Shown here: piece after piece, positions 18,746 to 63,610 of the stretch | Layout: each line of letters begins with the position of its first letter | Position numbering within the stretch: the stretch's first letter is position 1 | The notes under the pieces: model-generated | What the model saw: the letters and a program-made list of their open reading frames with translations, nothing else | What the model was told of the DNA's origin: nothing | The model's database searches: none | Position numbers and translations under genes: made by a program | NCBI GenBank assembly: GCA_026395685.1 | Contig: JAPLYG010000012.1 | Coordinates: 7,039 to 71,038 of the forward strand | DNA from: Candidatus Parcubacteria bacterium | GTDB lineage: Bacteria > Patescibacteriota > Patescibacteriia > CAIXNZ01 | Reading direction: 5' to 3' | Length of the DNA stretch: 64,000 bases

Positions 18746-19024
18746 ATGGATGATAATAAACATGATAAAATTAATAAGCCCTGGTGGCAGGATTCAATAA
18801 TGCTATTTACTCAGCTTTCAGGCTGGATCGGCATTCCGGTTATTTTGGGGGTTTTTCTGGGCAGATGGCTGGATCAAAAATATAATACTGAACCGTGGCT
18901 ATTTTTAATTACAGTTGGCGTGGCCTTTGCTATTTCCATGATTGGTATAGTTAAAGAAGCTACTAGTGCGATGAGAAAAATTGAACAAGATACCAAAAAT
19001 CAAAAAAATGATATCAGTAAATGA
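18746..19024 (+). CDS. AtpZ/AtpI-like small membrane protein preceding the atp operon
   Basis: Two TM helices, positioned directly upstream of atpB. Start chosen at the internal ATG; the ORF track begins at 18665. Confidence 0.4.
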   Translation: MDDNKHDKINKPWWQDSIMLFTQLSGWIGIPVILGVFLGRWLDQKYNTEPWLFLITVGVAFAISMIGIVKEATSAMRKIEQDTKNQKNDISK

Positions 19025-19889
19025 AAACAATATATTAGTAGTAAATTTACCTGCAGAGCATGCTGAAAATTTGGTTGAAACTGAACAGGTTGAACACGAG
19101 CATACTTTATATGCGGAAACTATCTGGCAGGGAAAATATTTAACCATTACCAATTCCATGATTAATGCCTGGATTGTTGTTTTGATAGTTATTGTTTTGT
19201 CCTTGATAATAAAATTGAAAATTAAAAAAATACCCAGCGGAATTCAAAATGGAGCTGAAATGGTGATAGACGGCGCTCTCAATTTGGCTGATTCAGTTAC
19301 CGGAAACAGAGATAAAACATTGAAATTTTTCCCCATTTGTTTTGCATTGTTCATTTTCGTGCTGATAAATAACTGGTTGGGAATTTTACCCGGCGTCGGT
19401 TCGATCGGATTTAATATGGTTGAAGAAGGCCATAAAGTTTTTGTGCCCTTATTCCGCGGAGGTACTGCTGATTTGAATACTACTTTGGCTCTGGCTCTAT
19501 TAGCGGTAATCGGCTCTAATCTTGCCGGCGCGATATTTACCGGTTCCTGGAATTATTTTAATAAATTTATTAATATTAAGGCCTTTTTAGCGATACCGAA
19601 AAAGATTTTAAAGGATCCTACTGTGATTTTAGTTAATCCGATCAAAGCTTTTGTCGGTATTGTCGAAATTATCGGTGAAATTGCCAAAGTCGCTTCACTG
19701 TCGTTTCGTCTATTCGGTAATATTTTTGCCGGCGAAGTGCTTTTGGCATCAATGGCTGCGTTGGTTGCGTTTGTGGTGCCGATACCGTTTATGTTTTTGG
19801 AAATAATTGTCGGTATTATCCAGGCTTTGATTTTTAGTGTTTTGACCTTGGTTTACTTGACTATAGCTACCACTAAGGAAGAGCATTAG
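18981..19889 (+). CDS. atpB: F0F1 ATP synthase subunit a
   Basis: SLSFRLFGNIFAGEVLL signature with the essential Arg. Confidence 0.88.
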   Translation: MNKIPKIKKMISVNENNILVVNLPAEHAENLVETEQVEHEHTLYAETIWQGKYLTITNSMINAWIVVLIVIVLSLIIKLKIKKIPSGIQNGAEMVIDGALNLADSVTGNRDKTLKFFPICFALFIFVLINNWLGILPGVGSIGFNMVEEGHKVFVPLFRGGTADLNTTLALALLAVIGSNLAGAIFTGSWNYFNKFINIKAFLAIPKKILKDPTVILVNPIKAFVGIVEIIGEIAKVASLSFRLFGNIFAGEVLLASMAALVAFVVPIPFMFLEIIVGIIQALIFSVLTLVYLTIATTKEEH

Positions 19890-20042
19890 GTTGTAATGGT
19901 AAATAGGTAACAGATAATAGGTAATAAGGTAAAGTAAATTTCAATGCAGTTATCCTTATTACATATTACTAATTACTTATTTCTAAGCTGCAGCGAACGA
20001 CTTTAAAAAATTAAACAGTCAGTCGAGTCCAAGCAGCAATAA

Positions 20043-20267
<225 letters not shown>

Positions 20268-20329
20268 TTTTTGACGATAAGGGGATGCAAATTTCGTCCC
20301 CTTGGGCTAGGAATTATTGAAGTTTAAAA

Positions 20330-20455
20330 TTCAAAGTTTAAAGTGCAAAGTTACAGTTAATAATTTAAAATTTAGGAAGATTATTTAAAATAAAATATTC
20401 CAAAATTTTTTACTTTACTATGTAATTTTGCATTTTGCATTTTTAATTTTTAATT
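20330..20455. repeat. Family D AT-rich palindromic element
   Basis: AAAGTGCAAAGTTACAGTTAATAATTTAAAATTTAGGAAGATT, with a degraded return arm GTAATTTTGCAT. Shares a 27-bp identical core with 29541-29660. Confidence 0.55.
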
Positions 20456-20463
20456 ATTTTTAT

Positions 20464-20961
20464 ATGGAGTCACTTATTTCAACATTTCATTTAGACGTAA
20501 AATTAATTATTGCCCAGCTATTCAATTTTGCCGTGGTTGCTTTGGTTTTATGGTTTTTTGCTTTAAAACCTCTGCTGAAAGTAATGAGTGAAAGAACAAA
20601 AACCATTGAAAAAAGCTTGGCTGACGCCAAGAAAATTGAGGACAGGCTGGTTAAAACCGAAGCTGAAAAAAAACAGATTATTGATGCTACCAAGAAAGAA
20701 GCAGCTAATATACTTGATGAAACCAATAAAAAAGCCGAAGCCAATAAAAAAGAAATGGTGGAAAAGGCAAAAGATGAAATAGAAAAATTAATCGCTAAGG
20801 GTAAATATCAGATTTCTTCGGATAAGGAAAAAATGCTGGTTGAGGTTAAGGCTGAATTGGCGGATTTGGTAGTTGACGCGACTAAAAAGGTGCTTGGTGA
20901 GTCATTGACAAAGGAAGTCGACAGAAAAGTGGTAGAAGAAGCAGTTAAAAAGATACGTTAA
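20464..20961 (+). CDS. atpF: F0F1 ATP synthase subunit b
   Basis: N-terminal TM, then a long charged Lys/Glu-rich helix. Operon position. Confidence 0.75.
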   Translation: MESLISTFHLDVKLIIAQLFNFAVVALVLWFFALKPLLKVMSERTKTIEKSLADAKKIEDRLVKTEAEKKQIIDATKKEAANILDETNKKAEANKKEMVEKAKDEIEKLIAKGKYQISSDKEKMLVEVKAELADLVVDATKKVLGESLTKEVDRKVVEEAVKKIR

Positions 20962-20962
20962 C

Positions 20963-21036
20963 GGAACCACGAAAGGTGTTCACGAAAACCCACGAAAATT
21001 TTCGTGTATTTAGTGATAATAGTTTTGTGGTTAAGC
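20963..21036. repeat. Family C palindromic element (GGAACCACGAAA...TTGTGGTTAAG)
   Basis: Arms AACCACGAAAGGTGTTCACGAAAACCCACGAAAA and TTTTCGTGTATTTAGTGATAATAGTTTTGTGGTT. Confidence 0.55.
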
Positions 21037-21049
21037 TATCAATATAACT

Positions 21050-21454
21050 ATGAGAAAAATTTCCAGTAAGAAATACGCCCAGGCGTTATACGAATTGACC
21101 AATGATTTGTCCAAGGAACAGATTAAGCTTGAAATTGGAAATTTTATAAAACTTATTGCCAGAAATAAAGATTTAAATAAAATTGATAAAATATTTAAAG
21201 CTTTTGATGAATATGCCAAGAAACAGGAATCAATTGTAGATGTTTCTGTGGTTTCTGCTGAAATTTTGAGCCCAAGCCAAAAAGAAGATTTAAAGCAACA
21301 GATTAAAAAGGAACAAAAGGTTAAGACAGTTAATTTGCAGGAGCAGGTTGATAAAAGTTTGCTGGGCGGTTTTATTTTAAAAATAGGAGATACAATATTT
21401 GACGCCAGCTTAAAATCCAGATTAGCTAGTTTGCGTGCTGATTTGAAGAAATAA
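21050..21454 (+). CDS. atpH: F0F1 ATP synthase subunit delta (short form)
   Basis: SKKYAQALYEL N-terminus and C-terminal LLGGFILKIGDTIFDASL. Operon position. Confidence 0.7.
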   Translation: MRKISSKKYAQALYELTNDLSKEQIKLEIGNFIKLIARNKDLNKIDKIFKAFDEYAKKQESIVDVSVVSAEILSPSQKEDLKQQIKKEQKVKTVNLQEQVDKSLLGGFILKIGDTIFDASLKSRLASLRADLKK

Positions 21455-21631
21455 GGTTCTTAGAGAGAAGGTTCTAGAATTTTACTGTTAAGTGAATTGG
21501 TTAAGATGCTTGTAGGTGAGTAGTGTTGAGGTTAAGTTTAAAACACTAAACACTATCCACTTTCTACTTACGAGCATCCTAACCTTAACCTAAACACAAT
21601 TTTTATTATTAATTATTCATAATTTAAGAAT

Positions 21632-23164
21632 ATGTCAAATAAAGACCTAGTCATTGAGTCATTAAAACAGCAAATCAAAGACTTTAAAACAGGCTTAAAA
21701 GTTGAAAAAACCGGCACGGTAGTGGAAATCGGGGACGGCATTGCCAGAATTTCCGGATTGTCTGATTGCATGTCTTCAGAAATGTTGGAGTTCCAGACTA
21801 AGGGCGAGCCTGTTTATGGCGTGGCTTTGAATCTGGAAGAAGATTCTGTCGGCGCTATTATTCTGGGTGATTATCTAGAAATTAAAGAAGGCGATACTGT
21901 TAAAACAACCGGTCGTATTTTGGAGGTTCCCGTCGGTGAAATGATGGTCGGGAGAGTAATCAATCCCTTAGGACAAGCTTTGGACGGAAAAGGTGAAATT
22001 AAAACAAAGAAATTCTATCCGGTTGAAAAAATCGCTCCCCGCGTTATCACTCGTGAAGGAGTAAGACAACCATTACAGACTGGTATTAAGGCAATAGACG
22101 CTATGATTCCGATCGGACGCGGTCAGCGCGAATTGATTATTGGCGACCGCCAGACTGGTAAGACCGCGATTGCCATTGATACGATTATTAATCAAAAAGG
22201 GCAGGATGTTGTTTGTATATATGTTGCCATCGGTCAGAAGGAATCTAAGATCGCTAAGATTGTGGCAGAATTGGAAAAACGCGGAGCCATGGAGTATACA
22301 GTTGTAGTTTTAGCTGGTGCTTCTGACCCGGCTGCCTTATCATTTATTGCTCCTTATGCCGGCTGTGCCATTGGTGAATTCTTTATGGATCAGGGCAAGG
22401 ATGCTTTGGTGGTTTATGATGATTTATCCAAACATGCTGTGGCATACCGTCAGATTTCTTTGCTTTTAAGAAGACCGCCAGGACGTGAAGCATATCCCGG
22501 TGATGTCTTTTATTTACATTCTCGCTTACTTGAACGTGCTGCTAAATTAAATAAAAATTACGGTGGTGGCTCATTAACTGCTTTACCGATTATTGAAACT
22601 CAGGCCGGTGACGTGTCTGCATATATTCCGACTAATGTTATTTCCATTACTGACGGTCAGATTTATCTGGAAAGCGATTTATTTTATCAGGGCATCCGTC
22701 CGGCTTTAAATACCGGTATTTCAGTTTCTCGTGTCGGCTCAGCAGCTCAGATTAAAGCTATGAAAAAAGTAGCGGGTCGTTTGAAGCTTGATATGGCGCA
22801 GTATCGTGAAATGGCTGCTTTTGCCCAATTCGGTTCTGATTTGGATGAAGCGACCCGAAAGCAGATTACCCGAGGTCAGCGCATGCAGGAAGTTTTAAAA
22901 CAGGATCAGTATGTGCCAATGCCGGTTGCTAATGAGGTGGCGATTATTTACGCCGGCGTTAACGGCTATCTGGATGATGTCCCTGTGGAAAAAGTCCTGC
23001 AATTTTGCGATGGTTTTGATAAGTATTTGAATATTTCAGGCAAAGACTTGCTGAAGAAAATAACTGAAGAAAAAGATATTAGCGAAGAAACAGCGCTTAA
23101 GTTGAAGGAAATTATTAATGATTTTAAAAAGACTTTGGACTATTTAAGTAAATTGAATTATTAA
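21632..23164 (+). CDS. atpA: F0F1 ATP synthase subunit alpha
   Basis: GDRQTGKT P-loop; many conserved blocks. Confidence 0.95.
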
Positions 23165-23281
23165 TTTTTAAGTTTTAATTTTTAAAAAATGATTTAATGT
23201 TTTAATTTCGAATTTAAACATTAAGTAATTAAAAATTGATTATAAATTAAAAATTATAAATTATTCATTTGAACGATTGTT

Positions 23282-24184
23282 ATGCCCAATACCCGCGACA
23301 TCAGAAGACGCATCAAGTCCATCTCAAATACGAAGAAGATTACCAAGGCCATGGAAATGGTGGCTTCTTCTAAAATGAGAAGGGCAGTAAATGGAGTGCT
23401 GGCTTCCAGGCCATACTCTGATTTGGCGTGGCAATTGATTCTAAATGTCGCTGGTAAGGCTTCTATTAAGCATCACCGTTTACTAGCTAAAAGAAAAGAA
23501 ATTAAATCCATTGGTATCGTACTGATTACCTCAAATCGCGGTTTGTGTGGGTCATTTAACCAGCAGGTTATGAAATCAGCGGTTGAAATCATTAAAAACG
23601 AAAAAGCTCAGCATTTTGATTTGAAAGTTGATATTGTTTCAGTCGGTAAAAAAGGTGCGCGCTCTATGTTTAGGCAGGGATATAAAGTCGTGGCTGAATT
23701 TGAAAAGCCAGATGTGATCAATAGCATTTTAGACGTCAAACCAATGGCCAATATGATTATGTCAGACTTTTTACATAAAAAATACGATAAAGTTTATTTA
23801 ATTTACACTGACTATATTTCTGCCTTAAAGCAGATTCCCAGAGTGAAGCAGATTTTACCGATTGAACCTACTCCTGATTTATTCCTGGGCACGGTCATTG
23901 AACAAAAAGAACAAGCAGTTAAACAATTTGAATATAAATTTGAACCGCCGGCTAAGGAAATATTAGGGGAGTTGCTACCGCGTTTGCTTTCCGTCCAGGT
24001 CTATCAAGCTTATCTGGAAAGTAATGCCTCAGAGCATTCTGCCCGCATGCTAGCCATGAGAAACGCTTCAGACGCTGCCGGTGACATGATTAATGAATTA
24101 ACCTTAATTTTTAACCAGGCGCGTCAGTCTGCGATCACCAAGGAAATAGCGGAAATTGCCGGAGGCAAGGCCGCACTCGAATAA
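23282..24184 (+). CDS. atpG: F0F1 ATP synthase subunit gamma
   Basis: IRRRIKSISNTKKITKAMEMVASSKMRRA start and conserved C-terminus ...ITKEIAEIAGGKAALE. Confidence 0.9.
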   Translation: MPNTRDIRRRIKSISNTKKITKAMEMVASSKMRRAVNGVLASRPYSDLAWQLILNVAGKASIKHHRLLAKRKEIKSIGIVLITSNRGLCGSFNQQVMKSAVEIIKNEKAQHFDLKVDIVSVGKKGARSMFRQGYKVVAEFEKPDVINSILDVKPMANMIMSDFLHKKYDKVYLIYTDYISALKQIPRVKQILPIEPTPDLFLGTVIEQKEQAVKQFEYKFEPPAKEILGELLPRLLSVQVYQAYLESNASEHSARMLAMRNASDAAGDMINELTLIFNQARQSAITKEIAEIAGGKAALE

Positions 24185-24264
24185 ACTCGTCGGCCTTAAC
24201 ACTTTAGTGTTAAGGCGATGCACTCAAACACTAAAGTGTTTGAGCCGTAAATAAGGGTCAGGCA

Positions 24265-24318
24265 GCCATTACCGAGGAAATAGCTGAAATTGCCGGAGGT
24301 AAGGCCGCACTGGAATAA
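24265..24318 (+). repeat. Diverged duplicate of the last ~17 codons of atpG including the stop. It is separated from the original by a 76-bp palindrome-containing insert.
   Basis: GCCATTACCGAGGAAATAGCTGAAATTGCCGGAGGTAAGGCCGCACTGGAATAA versus GCGATCACCAAGGAAATAGCGGAAATTGCCGGAGGCAAGGCCGCACTCGAATAA at 24131-24184. Confidence 0.7.
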
Positions 24319-24366
24319 TTTAAAATTCAAAATGCAAAGTGCAATGTTACAAAGCAAAATGAATAA

Positions 24367-25779
<1,413 letters not shown>

Positions 25780-25828
25780 ATTTTTAATTTATAATTTTTA
25801 AACAATTTTTAATTTATAAATTTTAAAT

Positions 25829-26266
25829 ATGAAGATCACGATTTGTAGTTCTATTGAATTTACTCCTCAAATTAAAGAGGTATTAGATCAATTGTCCTCT
25901 TTGGGTCATATTGTTGAAATTCCCAAATATTCTCAAAAAATATTGAATGGGGATTTGACGTTAGAAGAATTTATGACAAAGAAGAGGAAGGAAGGTGATC
26001 TTGAATTTAGGAATAAGGCTGAAGAGGATTTAATTAAGCGATATTATCGTATCATAGATGAAAGTGATGCAATTTTAGTCCTTAATTTGGAGAAAAATGG
26101 TATCCAAAATTATATAGGCGGTAATACCTTCTTAGAAATGGGTTTTGCCTTTGTCTTGAATAAACAAATTTTTCTTTGGAACGATATTCCAAAAATGCAG
26201 TATAGTGATGAACTTATAGCAATGAAACCAACTATAATTAATCATGATTTGGGTAAAATCAAATAA
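25829..26266 (+). CDS. Nucleoside 2-deoxyribosyltransferase-like (NDT/PF05014-like Rossmann) protein inserted between atpD and atpC
   Basis: MKITICSSI start and a C-terminal GGNTFLEMGFAFVLNKQIF resembling the NDT block D.GT.FE.G.A.A.GKP. Confidence 0.45.
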   Translation: MKITICSSIEFTPQIKEVLDQLSSLGHIVEIPKYSQKILNGDLTLEEFMTKKRKEGDLEFRNKAEEDLIKRYYRIIDESDAILVLNLEKNGIQNYIGGNTFLEMGFAFVLNKQIFLWNDIPKMQYSDELIAMKPTIINHDLGKIK

Positions 26267-26268
26267 AT

Positions 26269-26703
26269 ATGAGCGACAAAAAAATACAATTTAAAATTAC
26301 CACCCCTGAGCGGGAAGTTTATAATGACCAGGTTGACCAGGTGACTATTCCAACCAGGACTGGTGAGATTACGGTTTTGCCGGAGCATATTCCTTTGGTT
26401 GCTATTTTAGTTCCCGGCGAGTTGGTGATAAAAAAGGATAAGGAGGAGATAAGTCTGGCAGTTAGTTCAGGCTTTATTGAGGTTTTGCCTGACAAGGTTA
26501 CGATTTTGGCTGATACGGCTGAATTAGCCGAGGAACTGGATGAAAAAGCGATTGAAGAAGCTCATCAGCGAGCTTTGGATATGCAAAAAGAAAAGCGTTT
26601 TGACGCTGAGGAATACACTGCTTTGGCCGCACAGATTGAAAGGGAATTGGCGCGTCTTAAAGTTGCCAGAAAGAAAAAATATCGCAATTTACCTAATTCC
26701 TAA
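26269..26703 (+). CDS. atpC: F0F1 ATP synthase subunit epsilon
   Basis: QFKITTPEREVYNDQVDQVTIPTRTGEITVLPEHIPLVAIL. Confidence 0.85.
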   Translation: MSDKKIQFKITTPEREVYNDQVDQVTIPTRTGEITVLPEHIPLVAILVPGELVIKKDKEEISLAVSSGFIEVLPDKVTILADTAELAEELDEKAIEEAHQRALDMQKEKRFDAEEYTALAAQIERELARLKVARKKKYRNLPNS

Positions 26704-26741: not shown

Positions 26742-27167
26742 ATGTCACACGGATGTAAGTATCTGATTCTTCACTGCATGGACTATCGTCTTCAGTCAGT
26801 CATTGAAGAATGGAAAAAACCCAAAGGTATTTCCGGGGATGTGGATGTTATGTCCATTGCCGGCTCCTGTAAAGATTTATCCAATTACGCAATTGGAACC
26901 TGCGAATCCAATTTTGTCATGGCCATGATTTCTTTGGCTTATGAGAAACACGGAGTCAGGAATATCATTTTGACTCAGCATGAAGACTGTGGCGCTTATG
27001 GTGGAAAAACTGCTTTTGCCAGTGATGAAGCTGAAAAAGCCAAAGTCGTCGGCGATATGATCAAAGCCAAAAAAGCTTTGTTGGATAAATTCGCTGATTT
27101 GCATGTGGAAATGTTTCGTATCAAGATGGTAGGCGAAGGCTGGGAGTTTGAGGCGGTGAATGACTAA
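26742..27167 (+). CDS. Short beta-class carbonic-anhydrase-like protein
   Basis: CMDYR (compare CxDxR) and HEDCGA (compare HxxCG) Zn-ligand motifs. Confidence 0.4.
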   Translation: MSHGCKYLILHCMDYRLQSVIEEWKKPKGISGDVDVMSIAGSCKDLSNYAIGTCESNFVMAMISLAYEKHGVRNIILTQHEDCGAYGGKTAFASDEAEKAKVVGDMIKAKKALLDKFADLHVEMFRIKMVGEGWEFEAVND

Positions 27168-27408
27168 ATAAGTCTAAAGTACAAAGGCTAAAGTCTAATT
27201 TTAGGAAGAAATATTTGAAAGTCGCTCAAGTGGGCGGCTTTTTTGGTTATTACGATATTATTGACAATTTAGTTAAAATATGCTATTTTATAATAATAGC
27301 CTGAACTGTAAGTAAGGCTATTTCTCCACAGCTGATTTGGGCAACCCCCATTCGTCCGGTCCGCCGGAAATCAGCCAACATGTACCTCAGGGTACAAAGG
27401 AGGTTTAT

Positions 27409-27904
27409 CATGTGTTCGTATCTTTGGGGTTCACCGATCTATTGTGACGGAGACTGGTTGGTGTGGTTATGTTCCTGGGCAGTGGCACTTGTAGTGCTAA
27501 TTGCCATATTCGGAATATTGCTTCTTCGGGGGTACATAACCTTTCGTCGTAACGAGAAAATTATTAAAGAGGCTGGTTTCCTGGAAGCATTACTAAAAAA
27601 AGCAGCAAACGAGAATCTTGAAGATGCACGCAATACTCTTTCGCCTTTCTACACGTCTGATCAAAAGACGCTCTTTATCCCGCGATATTTTTGGGAAATC
27701 AATGATGTTGACATTTTGGCACGCACACTCAGGACATTATTAAAACTGTCGGAAGAAGAAATGCGTAAGAATTTGTTAACGTGCGTTGCCAAGAAGCTGC
27801 GGGAATTGGCAAAATCAAATCCACGCAGAGCCTTCGAAATCCTAGCTCATCTGGGGAGCATGGATAAGGAACTTGCGGTATCAATTCCCAGGTACGTAAA
27901 ATAA
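27409..27904 (+). CDS. Hypothetical membrane protein in a GC-richer segment
   Basis: Strong SD AAGGAGG 7 nt upstream of the ATG, unlike most genes here. N-terminal TM helix. Confidence 0.45.
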
Positions 27905-27920
27905 AATAATCCACTACCCT

Positions 27921-27957
27921 AAGGGCGCTTTCATTCGTGAGAGCGCCCGTTTTTTTA
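27921..27957 (+). terminator. Rho-independent terminator
   Basis: GGGCGCT-ttcattcgtgag-AGCGCCC stem, then TTTTTTT. Confidence 0.7.
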
Positions 27958-28034
27958 AGTCCTAGATTACTTGACAGGATTTCGGTTTTAGTGTAAGGTA
28001 AAATGAAAGTTTAAAACAGTAATTGGAGGTAGAA

Positions 28035-28373
28035 ATGCAAAGTCTTTTGGCTACTGGTGAAGCAGCTGATTCTTTTAAAGCCAAAACAACTCCGTGTGCT
28101 GAACCACAAACCGCCAGACAGTACTGGGTTTGTGAAGTGATTCATGATCCTTTTCGCATTGGTCATCATGTGTATCAGGGAAAAGTCTTGAAATTCATTG
28201 CCGTTGCTTATTGCACTGATAAAAAGTCGGCAGATTCAATTGCTTACCATACCGGAAGATTTGTCGTAATATCCGATGTATTTAATCATCGTCAGGAAGA
28301 CCGCTTTCTACATAAAAAAAATTTCGAAATAATTTCGTTTTACTTTCCAGCCCCGCCCAAGCGTCTCCCCTGA
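28035..28373 (+). CDS. Hypothetical protein (GC-richer segment, SD GGAGGT)
   Basis: ORF with a canonical SD upstream. No recognisable domain. Confidence 0.4.
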   Translation: MQSLLATGEAADSFKAKTTPCAEPQTARQYWVCEVIHDPFRIGHHVYQGKVLKFIAVAYCTDKKSADSIAYHTGRFVVISDVFNHRQEDRFLHKKNFEIISFYFPAPPKRLP

Positions 28374-28424
28374 GGCGCTTTTATTTTACGCAGCGGGGAT
28401 TATAAGGTACAATAATTGAAGGTG

Positions 28425-28513
28425 TTCATCGTTAATCGGTATCGACAATCGTTACGATTATCGATTATCGTTTAACGTAACGGAAAACGTCTGCCGAAAA
28501 ACGAATAACTATT
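28425..28513. repeat. Family B repeat (copy 2), immediately upstream of rlmN
   Basis: ATCGGTATCGACAATCGTTACG...TTTAACGTAACGGAAAACGTCTGCC...CGAATAACTATT. Confidence 0.6.
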
Positions 28514-54935: not shown

Positions 54936-55460
54936 ATGGTTAAATATCTATCATATTTATTATTTTCCTTAATATTAATATTTTTGCATCAAAGCTTTTT
55001 CGCCTCAATTGTGCCTGATGCTAATATTAATATTATTATTGTATTTTTGGTATTCGTAACTTTTGTCTGGGGGCTGGATGCGAGTTTCTATTTCGCCATT
55101 TTTATCGGTTATTTGCAGGGGTTTTATTCATATCTTCCTTTCGGGACTTTCATCCCAGTCTATCTGGCAATTATTGTTTTAGTGGATTATTTGCATCGTC
55201 AGATTTTTATTAATTTTACTTTTTCTACAAACTTATTGCTGATAATTATCAGCACCTTGTTTTATAACATTTTGTTGTTAATTCTGGCATTTTTTTTATA
55301 CCTGGTAAGGATAACTCAGGTATCAATAAATCTTGATAAAATATATTTCTCCAATTTAATATGGCTGACTATTGATAATTTAATTCTAAGCAGCCTGATT
55401 TATGTTGTTGCCAGCGCCATCTTTAGGAAAATGAATTTAACTATTTTGATAAAAAGATGA
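54936..55460 (+). CDS. mreD: MreD-like polytopic membrane protein
   Basis: Five hydrophobic helices. Position between mreC and PBP2. Confidence 0.5.
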   Translation: MVKYLSYLLFSLILIFLHQSFFASIVPDANINIIIVFLVFVTFVWGLDASFYFAIFIGYLQGFYSYLPFGTFIPVYLAIIVLVDYLHRQIFINFTFSTNLLLIIISTLFYNILLLILAFFLYLVRITQVSINLDKIYFSNLIWLTIDNLILSSLIYVVASAIFRKMNLTILIKR

Positions 55461-57379
55461 ACAGCCTTTTTGTTAAAAGACAATATCGGTCCATGATTGA
55501 AATAGATGATTTTTCGGTATATGATAATGATTGGCAGATAAATGGTTCGATAAATATTAAAGAATCTGATTTTATCGGAAAATTTTTAACAGATAAAAAA
55601 ATCGGATTTTTTCTTATTTGCATAATTGCAGTAATGGTATTTCTGTCGCTTCGGTCTTTTCAGTTGCAGATATTAAAAGGCAGCTATTATGAGCAGATAG
55701 CCGAGGCTAATCGTACTCAGGAAAAGCCTCTAATCGCTACCCGCGGCTTAATTTTTGATGTTCAAAAAAAATTGTTAGTAAAAAATATTCCATATTTTGA
55801 TGCTTTAATCGTGCCTAAAGATCTGAAAATAAATGATGCTGCCAGGCAAGAGCAGGTCAAAAAGATTGCCACTGCTTTAAATGTCAACGAGGCAGATATT
55901 ACCACCGAGCTTGCCAAACATCCTAAAAATTTTAAATATCCCATTATTGCTAAAGAAAATATAGATTATGAGCAGGCAATGCTTTTAAAAATAAAGGCAG
56001 GGGATACGCCAGGATATTATGTTGATACGCATTATGAGCGGCAATATCTGTATCCCAATGAATTTTCCCATATTATCGGTTACGAAGGTAAAATAACAGA
56101 GAATGAATTGAAAGAAAACGAAAAGTCCGACTATTTGCTTAATGACTATCTTGGTAAAACTGGTTTGGAGGCATATTATGAAGAAATTTTAAGAGGCAAA
56201 TACGGACAGGATTCAATAGAAGTTGATGTTTCCGGACAGGAGAAAAAAGTGATTGCACACCAGGAGCCGGAAAATGGTAAAAATTTAATTCTATCAATTG
56301 ATGCTCAAGTGCAACAAAAAGTTAGGGAAATTCTTGTGGCAAATTTAAGAAAATTTAATAAAACCAAAGCCAGCGTAGTAATGATTAATCCACAAAATGG
56401 TGAAATTTTATCATTGATTAGTTATCCTGATTTTGACAATAATTTATTTTCTTCAGGCATTTCTCGTGAGGATTATGCGAACCTGATAAATGATTCCAAT
56501 CAGCCGTTATTCGATAGGGCCATTAAAGGAGAATATCCTTCCGGGTCAAGTATTAAACCAGCCGTAGCCCTGGGAGCTTTACAAGAAAAGATTATAACTG
56601 ATAAAACAACTTTTATGAGCTCTGGAGGCCTTTGGCTCTATGATCGTTGGTTTTTTCCCGATTGGGCAGCGGGCGGACATGGTGTGACCAATGTCTACAA
56701 GGCAATTGCCTGGTCAGTCAATACTTTCTTTTATATTATCGGCGGAGGATATAACGATTTTAAAGGTTTAGGGCCGGAAGGCTTGGAAAAGTATTTTGTC
56801 TTATTTGGGTTTGGACAAAAAACTAATATCGATTTGCCAGGTGAAGCATCTGGTTTGGTACCAAATCCACTCTGGAAAATGCAAACAAAAAAAGAACAAT
56901 GGTATATAGGTGATACTTATCATATGGCAATTGGCCAGGGTGATGTCTTGGTTACGCCCCTGCAAATCGCAAATTTAACCGCGACGATCGCCAATGGCGG
57001 TACTTTATATCAGCCTCATATAGTTAAAGAGTTTTTTCCCAATAATGGCCAGTCAGAAGTAATAAAGCCGGTAATTTTAAGGGAAAATTTTATTGATAAG
57101 GAAAATATTGAAATTGTTAAAAAAGCCATGCGTCAAACAGTGACGATAGGGAGCGCGACTTTATTAAATAACCTGGATATTGCTGTCTCTGGTAAAACCG
57201 GTACTGCCCAATGGAATACTGAAAAAAATAATCATGCCTGGTTTACGGGTTTCGCGCCTTATGAAGATCCTCAAGTAGCGATTACAGTCTTGGTTGAAGA
57301 AGGCGGAGAGGGCAGCGCTGTGAGCGTGCCGATTACTTATGATATTCTCAATTGGTACTTTAACGTATATAAAAAATAA
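55457..57379 (+). CDS. mrdA: Penicillin-binding protein 2 (class B transpeptidase)
   Basis: SGSSIKP (SxxK) and KTGTAQ (KTG) motifs. N-terminal TM. Confidence 0.85.
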   Translation: MNSLFVKRQYRSMIEIDDFSVYDNDWQINGSINIKESDFIGKFLTDKKIGFFLICIIAVMVFLSLRSFQLQILKGSYYEQIAEANRTQEKPLIATRGLIFDVQKKLLVKNIPYFDALIVPKDLKINDAARQEQVKKIATALNVNEADITTELAKHPKNFKYPIIAKENIDYEQAMLLKIKAGDTPGYYVDTHYERQYLYPNEFSHIIGYEGKITENELKENEKSDYLLNDYLGKTGLEAYYEEILRGKYGQDSIEVDVSGQEKKVIAHQEPENGKNLILSIDAQVQQKVREILVANLRKFNKTKASVVMINPQNGEILSLISYPDFDNNLFSSGISREDYANLINDSNQPLFDRAIKGEYPSGSSIKPAVALGALQEKIITDKTTFMSSGGLWLYDRWFFPDWAAGGHGVTNVYKAIAWSVNTFFYIIGGGYNDFKGLGPEGLEKYFVLFGFGQKTNIDLPGEASGLVPNPLWKMQTKKEQWYIGDTYHMAIGQGDVLVTPLQIANLTATIANGGTLYQPHIVKEFFPNNGQSEVIKPVILRENFIDKENIEIVKKAMRQTVTIGSATLLNNLDIAVSGKTGTAQWNTEKNNHAWFTGFAPYEDPQVAITVLVEEGGEGSAVSVPITYDILNWYFNVYKK

Positions 57380-57527
57380 GGTCGAAGTCAAAGCCTGAAG
57401 TACAAAATATAATATAATCATTATTTACTCTTCATACTTCAAACTTAGTTTTCCACTTGACACAGAAGTTTGAAGCTGGTATTTTATATATTGTTACATA
57501 GATAAAATTATTCTTAATTTAACAATA

Positions 57528-57995
57528 ATGTCAGACGATAAGAAATATTTAACCCCCGAGGGCTTGAAAAAAGTTGAGCAAGAAGTGCATCATTTAAAAA
57601 CCGTACGCCGCCGGGAGATCAGCAGTAAAATTGAAGATGCTTTGAAATTAGGCGATATATCAGAAAATGCGGAATATCATGAGGCTAAAGATGAGCAGGG
57701 TATGCTTGAAGCTAGAATAAGAGAGCTGGAAGAAATTATTAATAACGCAGTAATCATTGAAAGTACTAATGGTAAGAAAAAATGTGTTTCTGTCGGTTGT
57801 ACAATTGAAGTAAAACTTGATAGCGATACTAAGAAATTTACGATTGTCGGTCCCAGCGAAGCAAACCCTTCTGTGGGTCTAATTTCCAATGAATCACCGA
57901 TTGGCCAGGCATTTTTGGGTAAAAAGATTGGTGATAGCGTTGATGTCCAGGCTCCAGCCGGTGTGATAAAATATAAGGTACTCTCAATTGAATAA
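57528..57995 (+). CDS. greA: Transcription elongation factor GreA
   Basis: LTPEGLKKVEQEVHHLKTVRRREI...ISENAEYHEAKDEQ. Confidence 0.9.
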   Translation: MSDDKKYLTPEGLKKVEQEVHHLKTVRRREISSKIEDALKLGDISENAEYHEAKDEQGMLEARIRELEEIINNAVIIESTNGKKKCVSVGCTIEVKLDSDTKKFTIVGPSEANPSVGLISNESPIGQAFLGKKIGDSVDVQAPAGVIKYKVLSIE

Positions 57996-58005
57996 AGATA
58001 TCAAA

Positions 58006-58041
58006 GAGTCCTCGCTAAGCGGGGATTCTTTGTTGTTTTTG
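58006..58041 (+). terminator. Rho-independent terminator after greA
   Basis: GAGTCCTCGC-taa-GCGGGGATTC stem, then TTTGTTGTTTTTG. The same CCTCGCT...AGCGGGG core occurs in the terminator at 10241. Confidence 0.6.
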
Positions 58042-58106
58042 ACTTTTAGCCGATTTTTCGTTAAAATTTAAGTATAACCAATAAACTAATAAACCAATAT
58101 ACACCT

Positions 58107-59546
58107 ATGTCTTTAGACGAACGCAAAATCCGTATAGAAAAATTAGAAAAAATAAAAGCAGATAAAATAAATCCTTATCCTGCCAAATATGATAAGAAAG
58201 TCAGCTTAATGCAGGCTTTTGAATCAAAAGAGGGGACAAAAGTCAAAACTGCCGGACGGCTTATGACCTTTAGAGACATGGGTAAGCTTTGCTTTTGCCA
58301 TTTAATGGACGAAAGCCATAAAATGCAAATCGCCTTACAGCTGGATAAGATCGGTGAAGAAAAATATAAATGGTTTGTGAAAAATCTGGATATGGGCGAT
58401 TTTATCGGAGTTGAAGGTGAGATCTTTACCACGCATAAAGGAGAAATTTCAATTTTAGTTTCTGATTACGAATTACTAACTAAAGCTCTGAGACCATTGC
58501 CCGAAAAATGGCATGGCATAACCGATGAAGAATTAAAACTGCGTAAAAGGTATCTTGATTTTATTTCTAATCCGGAATTAAAGGAGTTATTTTATCGTAA
58601 GGCAAAGTTTTGGCAGACCATGCGAGATTTTATGTTGGGAGAAGGATTTTTGGAAGTTGAAACTCCTGTTTTAGAAACCACTGCCGGCGGAGCTGATGCT
58701 GAACCTTTTGTGACTCATCATAATGCTTTAGATATGGATGTTTATCTGCGAATTTCTATGGGTGAATTATGGCAAAAAAGGCTGATGGTGGCCGGCTTTG
58801 AAAGAACATTTGAAATCGGACGCCAGTTTCGCAATGAAGGCATGAGCCGCGAGCATTTGCAGGATTATACTCAGATGGAATGCTATATGGCTTATGCAGA
58901 CTATAAAGACATGATGGCCTTGATGGAAAAAATGTATAAAAAAATTGTAAAAGAAGTATATGATAAAATGGAATTTGAAATCAACGGCTTTATGGTTGAT
59001 TTCAGTAAAAAATGGGAAACGATCGACTATGTAGAAAAAATTCAGAAAGATTTTGATCTGGATGTGACTAAGGCAACCAAAGAAGCATTGGTGAAAAAGC
59101 TTAAGGATTTAAAAATTGATTTTGATCCTAATTTGAGTAAAAACCGCTTGATAGACATTTTGTGGAAGCAAGTCAGAAAAACAATAGCCGGCCCGGCATT
59201 TTTGGTCGGACATCCTGTTGAAGTCGCGCCTTTGGCAAAACGAGATTTTAAAAATCCCGGACGAGTCCAGGAATTCCAAATAATATTAGGAGGTTCTGAA
59301 ATGGGCAAGGGATATAGCGAGTTAAATGATCCTATTGATCAGGCTCAGAGATTCAAAGAACAGGCTCAAATGCGACAGGCAGGGGATAAGGAAGCGCAAA
59401 TGCCAGATCAGGACTTTGTAGAGGCCCTGGAGTACGGAATGCCGCCGACAGCGGGTTTTGGCGTATCAGAAAGATTCTTTGCTTTCTTGGAAAATAAGAC
59501 TGCCAGAGAATGCCAGATTTTCCCACTGATGAAACCGGAAAGATAA
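58107..59546 (+). CDS. lysS: Lysyl-tRNA synthetase (class II)
   Basis: OB-fold N-domain AGRLMTFRDMGKLCFCHL; class II motifs. Confidence 0.9.
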   Translation: MSLDERKIRIEKLEKIKADKINPYPAKYDKKVSLMQAFESKEGTKVKTAGRLMTFRDMGKLCFCHLMDESHKMQIALQLDKIGEEKYKWFVKNLDMGDFIGVEGEIFTTHKGEISILVSDYELLTKALRPLPEKWHGITDEELKLRKRYLDFISNPELKELFYRKAKFWQTMRDFMLGEGFLEVETPVLETTAGGADAEPFVTHHNALDMDVYLRISMGELWQKRLMVAGFERTFEIGRQFRNEGMSREHLQDYTQMECYMAYADYKDMMALMEKMYKKIVKEVYDKMEFEINGFMVDFSKKWETIDYVEKIQKDFDLDVTKATKEALVKKLKDLKIDFDPNLSKNRLIDILWKQVRKTIAGPAFLVGHPVEVAPLAKRDFKNPGRVQEFQIILGGSEMGKGYSELNDPIDQAQRFKEQAQMRQAGDKEAQMPDQDFVEALEYGMPPTAGFGVSERFFAFLENKTARECQIFPLMKPER

Positions 59547-59585
59547 AATTCAATATTTAAATTTCTAAATATTAGTAAAAAATAT

Positions 59586-60548
59586 ATGGGCGAAAAATTT
59601 TATGAAAAGCCAGCCGTAAAAAAACAAGAGGATATTGAGAAATTCGGAGAAGCTTATGTATTTAAAGCTTTTCATGAATTGGGCTTTAAAATTGAATTGA
59701 TGCCTGAATTGTATGAACGCCTCATTGAATTGGCTACGATGGAAAAATCTCACTTTGTAGATGCTGTTAAAATGGCGAAAATGGTCGATGTTATTTGGGA
59801 TGATATTAGAACATTGCCTGACATTAAATTAACAAAGAACGAAATGAAATTAGCCTGCCTTTTTCATGATATCGGCAAATCAGGCCCTAAAGAAGCAGAA
59901 AACAGAGAGCAAAGGCGCATGATTCAAATGCTATTTAATCAAAAATATTTTAATCCAAAATCAGAGGGATTTAAAAATCTGAAAGGCCCTATTAAAAATT
60001 TAAGCATCGCTGATGCTTTGCAAATGGAAACCCAGATTGCCCCGCAGTCAAAAAAAAGAGTAATTGCGTATTTAGAAACATTAACGATTCATATATATAA
60101 TCCAGCCAGTAAAAAAGCCGAACCAGAAAAATTAGATATCAAAAAACATAAAATGATAGATTTTTGGCGCGAGCATGATTATTGGACTTTGAGTTTATTA
60201 AAAGCTTATGGTAATCATCAGGTTAATAATGACGTTAAGGAAGTTGCCAGTACCCATCATACGCTTGAAGGCCATGATCCGTGTGAAGTTGACGGAATGT
60301 TGAAACATGAATCAGCTACTATGGAATTATCGGATAAATACTTAATGCTGACTCTAATTGATAAATATCAGGCCTGGATCGATCGTTCCGGTCTTAGCCA
60401 TATTGTGGCAATTAAAAAATTAAAATCTGAAATAGCTCAAAGCTGGAAGGATAAAATTATTTCCAAAGAAGTAGCAAAAAAATTCCTCGATTGTTTAAGA
60501 AGAATTAAAAAATATAAAGATTTACCAAACTTAATCAACAAAGAATAA
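59586..60548 (+). CDS. HD-domain phosphohydrolase-like protein
   Basis: LACLFHDIGKSG HD motif. Confidence 0.55.
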   Translation: MGEKFYEKPAVKKQEDIEKFGEAYVFKAFHELGFKIELMPELYERLIELATMEKSHFVDAVKMAKMVDVIWDDIRTLPDIKLTKNEMKLACLFHDIGKSGPKEAENREQRRMIQMLFNQKYFNPKSEGFKNLKGPIKNLSIADALQMETQIAPQSKKRVIAYLETLTIHIYNPASKKAEPEKLDIKKHKMIDFWREHDYWTLSLLKAYGNHQVNNDVKEVASTHHTLEGHDPCEVDGMLKHESATMELSDKYLMLTLIDKYQAWIDRSGLSHIVAIKKLKSEIAQSWKDKIISKEVAKKFLDCLRRIKKYKDLPNLINKE

Positions 60549-60555
60549 TAAATTT

Positions 60556-60592
60556 AAAAGCCCCGAGTCATTTGACCCGGGGCTTTGTTTTA
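60556..60592. terminator. Bidirectional terminator between convergent genes
   Basis: AAAAGCCCCGAGTCA-tt-TGACCCGGGGCTTTGTTTT. Confidence 0.65.
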
Positions 60593-62032
60593 CATCTGGC
60601 CAGTCCAGCAGTAGGTGCAGAGTCTGTTTGTTGGCAATCCGATGCAGGAAATCGTTTCTTCCATGGTGGGATAAATAATCTGCTTAACCACCTCAATCTC
60701 TGACTCCCGGTTGACATCCCGGCGAATCCAATCAACCATAAACTGGTATTCTTCGGTAGCGGGATCGAGATATGGTCTCATATCGATCTCTTCAATGGGT
60801 TTGCCTTCTTTGGCAACCATAGCGCGACAGGCAGCTAATTCTGCTCTTTCACGGGTTGAAACTTCAAAGGGGCAGGTTTGCACTAAAGGCGGACAAGCCA
60901 GTCCCAGGTAGATGCCTTTGGGACGGCAGTCGCTGATTTTTTTGATCAGCTTTCGAAACTGGGTATTTCTCACCAGGGAATCATCCAGCATAAAAATTGT
61001 TTGGTCATTGATCAGTTCTTTGACTACAATGATTTTATGATGTGCCGCATCGTCACGTAATTCCTGGTTGGGATAAATATAACTGCGGGTATCGCCTTTT
61101 TTTAGCATGGGCCGTTTGAATGGCTTGCCCGAGGCAATAGCGGCTCCAATGCCATGTGCAGTGCCTGAATCAGGAATGCCCGTTAAATAATCGCAGTTTA
61201 GCCCCAGGGCATGGAATTTTTTCCACAATAACGCTCCCAGTGCGTAGCGAATGGTTTCGACGCATCTATTTTCAATAATCGCGGAAGGGAAGGCCGTGTA
61301 AACGTAAAGAAAGGCGCAAATTTTGCTGGTGTCTGATCCTTCTTGGAGAATCTCATAGCCTTTTTCGTTTAGAAGGCCAATTTCACCTGCCTGTAGCTCA
61401 TGTTCGCGTTCAAACCCGAGGTTAGGAAAAGCTGTTGTTTCAGAGGCGACTGCCCAAGCGTCCTTTTTAACGCCTATGGTCAGGGAAAAGGTGCCTCTTT
61501 TGCTTCTGGCAATATAAATGCCCTGGGGACAAAGTAAAAGCAGGGAAATGGATCCTTTGCCATCAATTGCCTGCCAGACTTTATTTATGCCATCAACAAA
61601 ATTATTTCCCTTGGCAATAATTTGGCCGACTACTTCGGCTTTATTGTAATTCCAGCTTTTTCTCTTCTCGTCATCGGTCATTTCCGTAAATGTTCGTCCT
61701 TCATTACGAAGTTTTTCTCCCAGTTCATGCAGGTTTTGGATATTGCCCTGCACACAAATCGCAAATTCTCCGTTTTTGGTATGAAAGGGAAGCGGCTGAA
61801 CATCATCGGAACTGATGACTCCGATTCCCATTTCACCGGTAAGCCTGGACAAATCATTAGCCAATCTTGATAAAAACGGGGTTTCCGTAATTTTATGAAT
61901 AGCCAATCTGGGACCGTTATCCCAAGTTACCATGCCGCCTATGGCGTTGCCCAGATGAGAATGGGCATTTGTACCGCGCCAAATATGGTAGCTGCAATTT
62001 TCTTTAGAAATAACTCCAAATAATCCTGACAT
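60590..62032 (-). CDS. PurF-like class-II amidotransferase/phosphoribosyltransferase homolog with Ser in place of the N-terminal nucleophile Cys
   Basis: PRTase motif IFMLDDSLVRNTQF. N-terminus is MSGLFGV (compare MCGIVGI). SD AAGGAGG upstream. GC is higher than the surrounding sequence. Confidence 0.6.
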   Translation of the reverse strand: MSGLFGVISKENCSYHIWRGTNAHSHLGNAIGGMVTWDNGPRLAIHKITETPFLSRLANDLSRLTGEMGIGVISSDDVQPLPFHTKNGEFAICVQGNIQNLHELGEKLRNEGRTFTEMTDDEKRKSWNYNKAEVVGQIIAKGNNFVDGINKVWQAIDGKGSISLLLLCPQGIYIARSKRGTFSLTIGVKKDAWAVASETTAFPNLGFEREHELQAGEIGLLNEKGYEILQEGSDTSKICAFLYVYTAFPSAIIENRCVETIRYALGALLWKKFHALGLNCDYLTGIPDSGTAHGIGAAIASGKPFKRPMLKKGDTRSYIYPNQELRDDAAHHKIIVVKELINDQTIFMLDDSLVRNTQFRKLIKKISDCRPKGIYLGLACPPLVQTCPFEVSTRERAELAACRAMVAKEGKPIEEIDMRPYLDPATEEYQFMVDWIRRDVNRESEIEVVKQIIYPTMEETISCIGLPTNRLCTYCWTGQM

Positions 62033-62290
62033 TTTAAATCCTCCTTGATTTTTTGTGAAAAAACAATAGAATCTCTTTGACCCCAGCTATATTTTAACAG
62101 ACTTGAAAACAAAGTCAATTTTTGCTAAGATTAGGATATGGTTGGATTCATTTAATAATGAAGACTATGAACCACGGATTATTTTCACGGATTTCCACAG
62201 ATACGATCTCGTTAAAATTTATGTTTCATCGTTTTCCAACTTTATACAACCTCATATAACCTAATAAAACATAATCTAACCTCAATAACT

Positions 62291-63610
62291 ATGCTCGACA
62301 TCAATTACATCAGAGACAACTTAAAGGAGTTTAAAAAAGCTGCTAAAAACAAGAAAATTGACGTAGATTTGGATAAGCTTTTGGAATTGGATGAACAAAG
62401 GCGTAAGTTAATCCAGGAAATGGATCTCTTGCGCAGCCAGCGTAATGAAAACGCTGATTTGCTTAAGGATCCAAAAAAACGCACAGATAACCTGATTGAA
62501 GATGGTAGGGCGTTAAAAGACAAGCTAGCTGGCCTGGAAAGCGAATATAACGCTGTTTTAAGCGAGTTTAATGCGATTATGGTAAAAGTGCCCACCATTC
62601 CTTCAGCAGATACTCCAGTGGGCAAAGATGAGTCTGAAAACGTGGAGTTTTATAAATGGGGTGAACCCAGGACATTTGATTTTGAGCCTAAAAGCTATAT
62701 GGAATTGGCTGAAAGTCTGGATTTATTAGATATTGAAAGAGGCGCTAAAGTAGGCGGCTATCGCGGTTATTATTTGAAAAATGAAGCAGTAATGATGCAG
62801 ATGGGCTTGATGATGCATGCTTTGACAAAATTAATTAGCAAAGGCTTTACTCCTATTATTCCGCCGACTTTGGTTAAGGAATTTGTCTTATTTGGCAGCG
62901 GTTACTTTGGCGGTACAGAATATAATCCTGATAAGGATGAAATCTATAAAATAGCCAATGATGAGAAATTAGCTGATGGCACGCTAAAAAAAGAGAATAA
63001 GTTTTTAATAGGAACAGCTGAGCCGTCACTTTTAGCCTATTATGCCGATGAAATTATTGAGGAAAAGGATTTGCCTAAGAAATTTGTGGGTTTTTCTCAA
63101 TGTTACCGCAGCGAAATCGGCAGTTATGGCAAGGATACCAAGGGCATTTATCGCGTTCATGAATTTATGAAAGTTGAACAGGTTTGTCTGACCAAGGCTG
63201 ATCCTGCAGAATCAGATAAAATGCATCAGGAAATTATTAAAATATCACAGGAATTGTTGGAAGATTTCAAATTGCCCTATAGATTATTACAAATTTGCAC
63301 AGGTGATATGAGTGCCGGAAAATATAAGATGTTTGATTTGGAAGCCTGGATGCCTAGCCGCAAAGGTTATGGTGAAACTGGTTCAGCTTCAAATTTCCTT
63401 GATTGGCAGGCCAGACGTCTAAATGTCCGTTATAAGGACGCGAATGGCGATAAGAAATATGTTCATATGATTAATAATACTGCCATTGCCAGCCCGAGAT
63501 TTTTGATTCCTATTTTGGAAAATTATCAAAATGCCGATGGTTCAGTTACAATTCCAGAATTGTTAAGGCCATATTTGGGGAATCAAGAAAAGATTATACC
63601 TAAAAAGTAA
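62291..63610 (+). CDS. serS: Seryl-tRNA synthetase
   Basis: MLDINYIRDN start, N-terminal coiled coil, class II motifs. Confidence 0.9.
   Translation: MLDINYIRDNLKEFKKAAKNKKIDVDLDKLLELDEQRRKLIQEMDLLRSQRNENADLLKDPKKRTDNLIEDGRALKDKLAGLESEYNAVLSEFNAIMVKVPTIPSADTPVGKDESENVEFYKWGEPRTFDFEPKSYMELAESLDLLDIERGAKVGGYRGYYLKNEAVMMQMGLMMHALTKLISKGFTPIIPPTLVKEFVLFGSGYFGGTEYNPDKDEIYKIANDEKLADGTLKKENKFLIGTAEPSLLAYYADEIIEEKDLPKKFVGFSQCYRSEIGSYGKDTKGIYRVHEFMKVEQVCLTKADPAESDKMHQEIIKISQELLEDFKLPYRLLQICTGDMSAGKYKMFDLEAWMPSRKGYGETGSASNFLDWQARRLNVRYKDANGDKKYVHMINNTAIASPRFLIPILENYQNADGSVTIPELLRPYLGNQEKIIPKK

Follow-up and report, generated by a model that had tools for sequence, protein, structure and literature searches.

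The ATP synthase operon described here is interrupted by a small gene, termed X, which lies between atpD and atpC and encodes a remote relative of the nucleoside 2-deoxyribosyltransferases (NDTs). The best joint explanation, which we regard as moderately probable, is that X is a nucleoside monophosphate (NMP) N-glycosidase that was recently relocated into the atp operon and has no role in the ATP synthase. Counted against this explanation is that the sequence links of X to characterised enzymes are weak.

Gene X in the ATP synthase operon

The window, by which we mean the whole 64,000-nucleotide stretch of DNA that was analysed, contains a complete F-type ATP synthase operon on the + strand with the gene order atpB-E-F-H-A-G-D-X-C (Table 1). 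Judged by its conservation, the X open reading frame (ORF) is a real gene. An identical protein (P0001) is encoded in an NCBI metagenome-assembled genome named Candidatus Parcubacteria bacterium, and an independent JGI contig carries a 96% identical X protein (P0002) within the same atpG-atpD-X-atpC order, so an assembly chimera does not account for it. For atpD, the true start is likely the ATG at 24412, giving a 455-aa protein that agrees with the gene call on the P0002 contig.

X is separated from atpD by 49 nt and from atpC by 2 nt, and a scan for terminator-like sites was negative over the interval from atpD across X to atpC. Downstream of atpD, the first strong signal of this kind is a hairpin behind a beta-carbonic-anhydrase-like (CA-like) gene. 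Because terminators are lacking and spacing is tight, co-transcription is plausible, and X is probably transcribed together with the atp genes, with atpC probably translationally coupled to it. The transcript covering the atp genes, X, atpC, and the CA-like gene would probably end at the hairpin, behind which lies a good promoter-like site (27261-27289). Similar CA-like genes are found 3' of atpC in many related loci (L087-L091 and others), and within this clade the atp transcription unit seems to end regularly with this gene. The initial annotation had proposed a 145-aa gene between atpD and atpC that is co-transcribed with its neighbours; the ORF, the Pfam-identified flanking genes, and the order on the P0002 contig bear out the first statement, and the second is consistent with the sequence organisation.

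No clear Shine-Dalgarno sequence precedes any gene of the atp operon, and such sequences are absent from most genes here. The leaders of the atp-operon genes are AT-rich, and that of X has the same character and shares the sequence AATTTTTAATTTATAA with the atpA-atpG spacer. This motif is present in 11 copies (at most two mismatches, both strands), against 1.8 expected by chance, and is concentrated in the atp intergenic spacers, with sites at 23156-23262, 25779-25819, and 20438-20453, among others. The atpD-X spacer has no similarity to the atpD-atpC spacer of the related locus L087, which lacks X. The latter (L087 positions 4878-4924) is filled by repeats of the CACGAAAA type, which in the window occur in the atpF-atpH spacer (20962-21010) together with the palindrome CACGAAAATTTTCGTG.

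Table 1. Positions of the main features discussed in the text (coordinates of the window).
Feature	Position	Strand	Description and basis
Upstream atp genes (atpB, atpE, atpF, atpH, atpA, atpG)	18981..24184	+	ORFs; synteny with L087; starts at atpB 18981, atpE 20055, atpF 20428, atpH 21050, atpA 21632, atpG 23282
atpD (F1 beta)	24370/24412..25779	+	PF00006/PF02874, E=2e-74
atpD-X spacer	25780..25828	.	49 nt, A/T letters only; AATTTTTAATTTATAA twice
Gene X	25829..26266	+	145-aa ORF, ATG start, TAA stop; NDT-superfamily protein, predicted nucleotide N-glycosidase
atpC (F1 epsilon)	26269..26703	+	PF02823, E=3e-28
Beta-carbonic-anhydrase-like (CA-like) gene	26742..27167	+	PF20393; Pfam match; related atp loci
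Terminator-like hairpin	27217..27242	+	11-bp stem and T run; first strong one 3' of atpD
Block PBP2 - greA - lysS - HD protein - (reverse-strand GATase_7) - serS	55457..63610	+	Contains neither X nor CTP_transf_like
GATase_7-domain protein	60590-62032	-	480 aa; only long reverse-strand gene in the window

X is a distant NDT-superfamily protein

Homologues of X are abundant: a protein search returned more than 1000 at E<=1e-3, and a profile search of a library clustered at 50% identity returned 1496 clusters at E<=1e-3, of which 929 reached E<=1e-10. Their hosts are mostly Patescibacteria and DPANN archaea, with a few Bacteroidota. The latter include the free-living Draconibacterium sp. (L030) and Sunxiuqinia rutila (L031), whose family members are 53-55% identical to X. 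The presence of the gene in Bacteroidota and in many DPANN archaea points to transfer between phyla and between domains.

X matches PF05014 (Nuc_deoxyrib_tr) with 15.5 bits (E=0.02), below the Pfam gathering threshold of 28.8 bits. Weak PF05014 matches were obtained for 34 of 38 diverse family members (best E=4e-5), and the threshold was passed solely in the fusion protein P0122, by an N-terminal domain distinct from the X-type one (43.3 bits). PF15891 was absent from the Pfam matches of X listed at E<=1, and NCBIfam, PADLOC, and PHROGs gave zero matches. Searches of PDB chain sequences with X alone and with the family profiles A1 and A2 produced spurious low-complexity or helical matches and nothing significant.

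The relationship to proteins of known structure was recovered by fold comparison alone. An AlphaFold2 model of the X monomer, built from the family alignment, has a pLDDT of 95 and a pTM of 0.89. Its top Foldseek matches in the PDB are the Trypanosoma brucei NDT, the CMP N-glycosidase BcmB, YtoQ, human DNPH1, and the D. psychrophila NDT (probability 1.00, TM about 0.45-0.60), and the 16 best-ranked PDB matches are all NDT, BcmB, YtoQ, or DNPH1 (probability 0.98-1.00, TM 0.40-0.60). In the viral library BFVD, the best matches are phage N-deoxyribosyltransferases (E=7.5e-6). Given these fold matches and the sub-threshold PF05014 score, X belongs to the NDT superfamily as a distant relative and falls outside PF05014 at the Pfam level; we are highly confident of its membership in the superfamily.

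Two further groups of proteins were considered. YtoQ of B. subtilis (8of6, TM 0.58) is likewise small, uncharacterised, and NDT-like; X has no match to a YtoQ-family Pfam entry. The LOG/PpnN nucleotide 5'-monophosphate nucleosidases convert NMPs to base and ribose 5-phosphate, the same reaction as proposed below for X, and the X motif Y-I-G-G-N-T-x-x-E resembles PGGxGTxxE, the LOG motif. A SLOG-type molybdenum cofactor binding protein (6y01) is among the weaker structural matches. Assignment of X to the LOG/SLOG nucleosidases was rejected: no LOG Pfam match was found at E<=1, the X motif (IGGNTFLE) is one residue shorter, and NDT-type proteins outrank them in both fold searches.

The family retains the nucleophile Glu and a putative phosphate loop, but not the triad Tyr and Asp at the aligned positions

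The active site was analysed by aligning X and its homologues with L. leichmannii NDT (LlNDT) and human DNPH1 (HsDNPH1), whose reference sequences were checked against the PDB, using MAFFT and hhalign. Enzymes of the NDT/DNPH1 type are obligate dimers in which the neighbouring subunit completes the active site, and their general-acid Asp sits about 5 A from the nucleophile Glu. The 5'-phosphate site of DNPH1 is formed by the amides of the C-G-S-I-R-G loop together with Ser98 and Ser128'.

The key residues of X in the family alignments A1 and A2 are C6, S8, Y72, D80, N86, K89, Y95, G97, N99, E103, and K112. E103 lies in the block GGNTFLEMGFAFVLNKQIF (residues 97-115) and aligns with the nucleophile Glu of both reference enzymes in MAFFT (LlNDT E98, HsDNPH1 E104), where it opens the helix that follows beta3, and with that of DNPH1 also in hhalign. 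Of 38 family members, 37 have Glu at this position and one has Asp. The invariant D80 falls on the conserved Asp within the 'aDvvvA' strand (LlNDT D80), and the conserved loop C6-G/S-S8-I9 aligns with C26-G27-S28-I29 of DNPH1. MAFFT and hhalign gave the same pairings for E103, D80, and this loop. In DNPH1, the backbone NH groups of this loop hold the 5'-phosphate and the 3'-OH, Cys26 lies 3.7 A from the nucleophile, and the conserved beta1 Tyr hydrogen-bonds the Glu (PMC10483697).

The other two residues of the triad are not conserved at the aligned positions. The position of the Tyr (HsDNPH1 Y24, LlNDT Y7) is T4 in X and V, I, T, or A across the family, and that of the Asp (HsDNPH1 D80, LlNDT D72) is Y72 in X and Y, H, or W in the family. 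Five positions before Y72, most family members have an acidic residue (D67 in X). The invariant G97 occupies the position of DNPH1 Ser98, and the alignments revealed no counterpart of Ser128'. These alignments are statistically weak: hhalign of A2 against a vertebrate DNPH1 profile, built from the listed low-diversity vertebrate orthologues, gave E=0.009 with low probability, and comparisons with the single DNPH1 and LlNDT sequences were insignificant, that with LlNDT being out of register. With the nucleophile and a DNPH1-like phosphate loop kept and Tyr, Asp, and Ser98 replaced, the family appears to have a second-shell chemistry of its own, and since two of the three triad residues are not conserved, the chemistry or substrate of X could differ from those of NDT and DNPH1.

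These results support two suggestions of the initial annotation, an NDT-like Rossmann-type fold, which the AlphaFold2 model and Foldseek place at the remote end of the group, and an active-site Glu, which corresponds to the NDT/DNPH1 nucleophile. Of the two Pfam families that it named for comparison, PF05014 gives a weak match that stays below the family threshold, and PF15891 was absent from the matches listed at E<=1.

Fusion partners and neighbours suggest a role in nucleotide house-cleaning

MazG, NUDIX, and YjjX proteins are, together with Maf, classical house-cleaning enzymes that convert non-canonical NTPs to NMPs. Among the representatives of the X family, X-type domains are fused to NTPase_I-T, which we take to be the YjjX-type ITP/XTP pyrophosphatase, in six independent clusters, to NUDIX in three, and to MazG in two. 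Several other representatives consist of tandem NDT-like domains. In P0121, P0122, and P0128, the X-type domain is joined to a second, divergent NDT-like domain, in P0121 also with MazG, which suggests that these tandem proteins are covalently linked pseudo-dimers of a normally dimeric enzyme.

Gene neighbourhoods in 80-odd genomes carrying X homologues include Maf (four loci and P0003), HD phosphohydrolases, NUDIX proteins, and a PfkB kinase alongside SAH hydrolase. The neighbour found most often, a small CTP_transf_like nucleotidyltransferase (11-12 loci), does not belong to the house-cleaning enzymes. After the proteins from atp operons, the next-closest homologues (63-67% identity) adjoin Maf, wyosine-biosynthesis genes, TauE and a radical SAM gene, or Gmad2 together with CTP_transf_like and serS. 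Maf proteins act as pyrophosphatases on modified NTPs and release NMPs (PMC3899018).

The NDT fold, the phosphate loop, and the fusions to house-cleaning pyrophosphatases together suggest that X handles the NMP product of its partners. That X is an NMP N-glycosidase is a prediction from its modelled fold, one conserved catalytic residue, and these Rosetta-stone fusions, and we consider it about evenly balanced. Such an enzyme would cleave the N-glycosidic bond of nucleoside 5'-monophosphates to give the base and (deoxy)ribose 5-phosphate. During cleavage, the ribosyl group would become covalently attached to Glu103 as an intermediate, in the manner of DNPH1, which acts on 5hm-dUMP, and of MilB/BcmB. 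X would thus act after Maf, MazG, NUDIX, and the YjjX-type ITPase in the disposal or recycling of non-canonical nucleotides. Literature searches on the X family, YtoQ function, and atpD-atpC insertions returned nothing relevant.

One close parallel is DNPH1/Rcl (2'-deoxynucleoside 5'-phosphate N-hydrolase, 5-hydroxymethyl-dUMP N-hydrolase; PF05014), which has the same fold as X (Foldseek probability 1.00), a similar size (X has about 145 aa), an identical beta1 loop (C-G-S-I), and its nucleophile Glu at the same G-x-x-x-E-x-G-x-A helix start (X E103, DNPH1 E104). For both proteins, the inferred role is the removal of non-canonical nucleotides. They differ in that X has T/V/I/A in place of Tyr24, Y/H in place of Asp80, and Gly97 in place of Ser98, carries a helical insertion of about 30 residues (33-63), and is only about 12-16% identical. 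A second parallel is provided by MilB/BcmB, NDT-fold N-glycosidases that hydrolyse the ribonucleoside monophosphates CMP and hydroxymethyl-CMP (4jen; second-best structural match, E=1.2e-3). MilB and BcmB reportedly also lack the catalytic Tyr and have instead a Phe that accommodates the 2'-OH. No significant sequence similarity to X was detected, and unlike X they are encoded in nucleoside-antibiotic biosynthesis clusters.

X might instead be a genuine nucleoside 2'-deoxyribosyltransferase that swaps the bases of deoxynucleosides in salvage, which we consider unlikely. Type I/II NDTs (L. leichmannii 1f8x, T. brucei 2a0k, L. mexicana 6qai, D. psychrophila 7o62) share the Glu nucleophile and the 'aDxxxA' strand with X and are among its best structural matches, 2a0k with the best Foldseek E-value (4.5e-4) and 7o62 with the best TM-scores (0.59-0.67); JGI names several family members 'nucleoside 2-deoxyribosyltransferase', and a thymidine-phosphorylase-family gene lies about 5 kb away at one locus. 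The taxonomic distribution would also fit, as the family is concentrated in salvage-dependent symbionts with reduced genomes (CPR, DPANN), for which an absence of de novo nucleotide synthesis is generally reported. However, X has at the aligned positions no equivalents of LlNDT Tyr7, Asp72, and Asp92, the first two of which correspond to the residues that NDTs have in common with DNPH1, and its beta1 loop is CGSI as in DNPH1, compared with YFGAGWF in L. leichmannii NDT. In addition, the PF05014 score is sub-threshold, and all fusion partners of the family yield nucleoside monophosphates, not nucleosides.

X entered the atpD-atpC junction recently

Comparison with related loci showed that the atp linkage of X is confined to a shallow lineage. 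None of 86 loci with X homologues (40-67% identity) has atp genes within 6 kb, and X is present in none of 80 related atp loci retrieved with atpC as a probe; the order atpD-X-atpC was found elsewhere only on the P0002 contig. The atpD-atpC spacer has a median length of 54 nt in 74 operons with an intact junction, compared with 489 nt here. The L087 locus is highly similar to the window in amino acid identity (atpD 94.7%, atpC 90.7%, CA-like gene 79%), and its spacer of about 47-50 nt contains no X. Nucleotide homology between the two breaks off exactly at the atpD stop codon and sets in again with the atpC ATG. As homology breaks at the junction, the insertion is younger than the split from the L087-like relative and thus recent; we are almost certain that X was inserted in this lineage specifically.

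The same junction carries other cargo in related CPR lineages. In L119/L120 (4615-4977), it contains a 23S_rRNA_IVP/bAvd-like four-helix-bundle gene (PF05635, E=7e-32), and in L132 (4665-5000) an ORF for a hydrophobic protein of 111 aa, with gaps of 1 nt and 0 nt to the flanking genes. The atpD-atpC junction is thus permissive and accepts unrelated small genes. Further small insertions relative to L087 are present in the atp operon of the window, and, with other cargo at the junction, this favours neutral hitch-hiking of X over selected co-regulation. The insertion is probably neutral, as far as can be inferred from these comparisons.

Two additional inserts were noted. Directly 3' of the atpG stop codon (24185-24320), a 75-nt insert with two hairpins (CCTTAACACTTTAGTGTTAAGG, CTCAAACACTAAAGTGTTTGAG) is followed by a duplicate of about 60 nt that comprises the 3' end of atpG and the post-stop sequence found in L087, which is the ancestral one. 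The structure resembles a small element that integrated into the end of atpG and either carried in a substitute 3' end or created it by duplication. Just 3' of the atp unit, a segment of about 1.1 kb (27168-28513) with the ORFs 27380-27904 and 28023-28373, neither of which has a significant Pfam or PHROG match, is missing from L087. There, the CA-like gene is followed after about 230 bp by the next conserved gene, the counterpart of window ORF 28514-29521, which judging from its sequence is presumably rlmN-like. The segment is a second recent insertion.

That X is an insertion, as first proposed, is well supported by the X-less related operons and by the homology breaks in L087. The functional interpretations then attached to its position fare worse. 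Of the two observations that the initial annotation named as jointly refuting it, one was made, in that the gene lies elsewhere in related genomes without atp linkage; the other, a lack of similarity to the NDT fold, was not. X also has no atp-related Pfam or NCBIfam match that would connect it to ATP synthase subunits or assembly factors; as a component of the F1Fo operon, it was rejected on this ground and because it is missing from all 80 related atp loci. A functional tie to the ATP synthase is, in our assessment, very likely lacking.

The placement would be adaptive if X acted directly on the F1 sector or on adenylates, for instance by cleaving AMP as an N-glycosidase, with its expression tied to that of the ATP synthase. 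We consider this highly improbable. Tight operon packing with translational coupling to atpC, the preservation of the order in two independently sampled populations, and the general principle that operon membership often reflects function would speak for it. Against it stand the complete lack of atp linkage among the family loci and related atp loci surveyed, including the relative with a 95% identical atpD, the unrelated cargo at the same junction in other lineages, the missing similarity to ATP synthase subunits or assembly factors, and a conserved family context of a different kind (greA-lysS-serS, see below). The same low probability applies to a more specific version, according to which X is an AMP/NMP N-glycosidase captured adaptively by the atp operon, so that monophosphate trimming and the recovery of ribose 5-phosphate for fermentation would be coupled to F1Fo levels.

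Least probable of all is selfish or defence cargo, either a TIR/SLOG-like effector that degrades NAD+ or signalling nucleotides or a mobile-element gene in a highly expressed operon: NDT, TIR, and SLOG folds are related, TIR domains occur among the weaker structural matches, the GC content of X is below that of its flanks, and AbiEii and Schlafen-like genes lie near one family locus, but PADLOC and PHROGs returned nothing, low GC is a family-wide trait, the dominant contexts are housekeeping ones (aminoacyl-tRNA synthetases, greA, nucleotide enzymes), X is a single small gene without partner genes, and its borders show no target-site duplication, terminal repeat, integrase, or transposase, only AT-rich low-complexity pseudo-palindromes. 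A known anti-phage defence system was likewise rejected, on the missing PADLOC match and the housekeeping context. The co-regulation with energy metabolism and the selfish or phage-defence role that the initial annotation had envisaged are therefore not sustained.

Probable origin in a greA-lysS-X-serS block

In a tblastx comparison, 14 of 85 X-bearing loci had X flanked by lysS and/or serS, in the co-directional order (PBP)-greA-lysS-[CTP_transf_like]/X-serS, and a CTP_transf_like gene often accompanied X there. The window contains a corresponding block without X (Table 1), which is the probable ancestral home of the gene; no second copy, paralogue, or pseudogene remnant of X was found elsewhere in the window. 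The new site of X and the vacated ancestral block would thus both lie within the same stretch of DNA. Between lysS and serS, the position that X and CTP_transf_like occupy in relatives is taken by the HD gene and the GATase_7 gene, the latter of which has the highest GC content (45%) of the 54 window genes. Given this position, the GATase_7 gene may be replacement cargo.

In the simplest history, X would have left the greA-lysS-X-serS block and landed in the atpD-atpC spacer; alternatively, it would have been lost and then horizontally re-acquired. X has a GC content of 30.1%, compared with 37.5% for the window and 42-43% for atpD and atpC. The GC content of family members averages 3.7 points below that of their surroundings, and the offset of X falls at the 11th percentile of the family. 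Low GC is thus typical of the family and only weak evidence of a foreign origin, and it was downgraded as a sign of horizontal transfer. With the nearest non-atp homologue 68% identical and the GC offset at the 11th percentile, relocation and re-acquisition are not separable.

Implications for the X family and its hosts

The near-universal adjacency of atpD and atpC can be broken in CPR genomes, where the junction repeatedly takes up unrelated small genes. The atp insertion itself is a minor, lineage-specific curiosity, and the greater value lies in the uncharacterised family behind X, which comprises about 1500 clusters at 50% identity centred on CPR bacteria and DPANN archaea, has the NDT/DNPH1 fold with an altered active site, and is recurrently linked to four classes of house-cleaning NTP pyrophosphatase. 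If the adaptive AMP/NMP reading were true, X would represent a new control of energy charge in an organism with minimal metabolism. If X is an NMP N-glycosidase, as in the explanation we prefer, the family would be a prokaryotic functional counterpart of human DNPH1 and would provide presumed nucleotide scavengers with a two-step sanitising or recycling route, from non-canonical NTP to NMP and on to base and ribose 5-phosphate.
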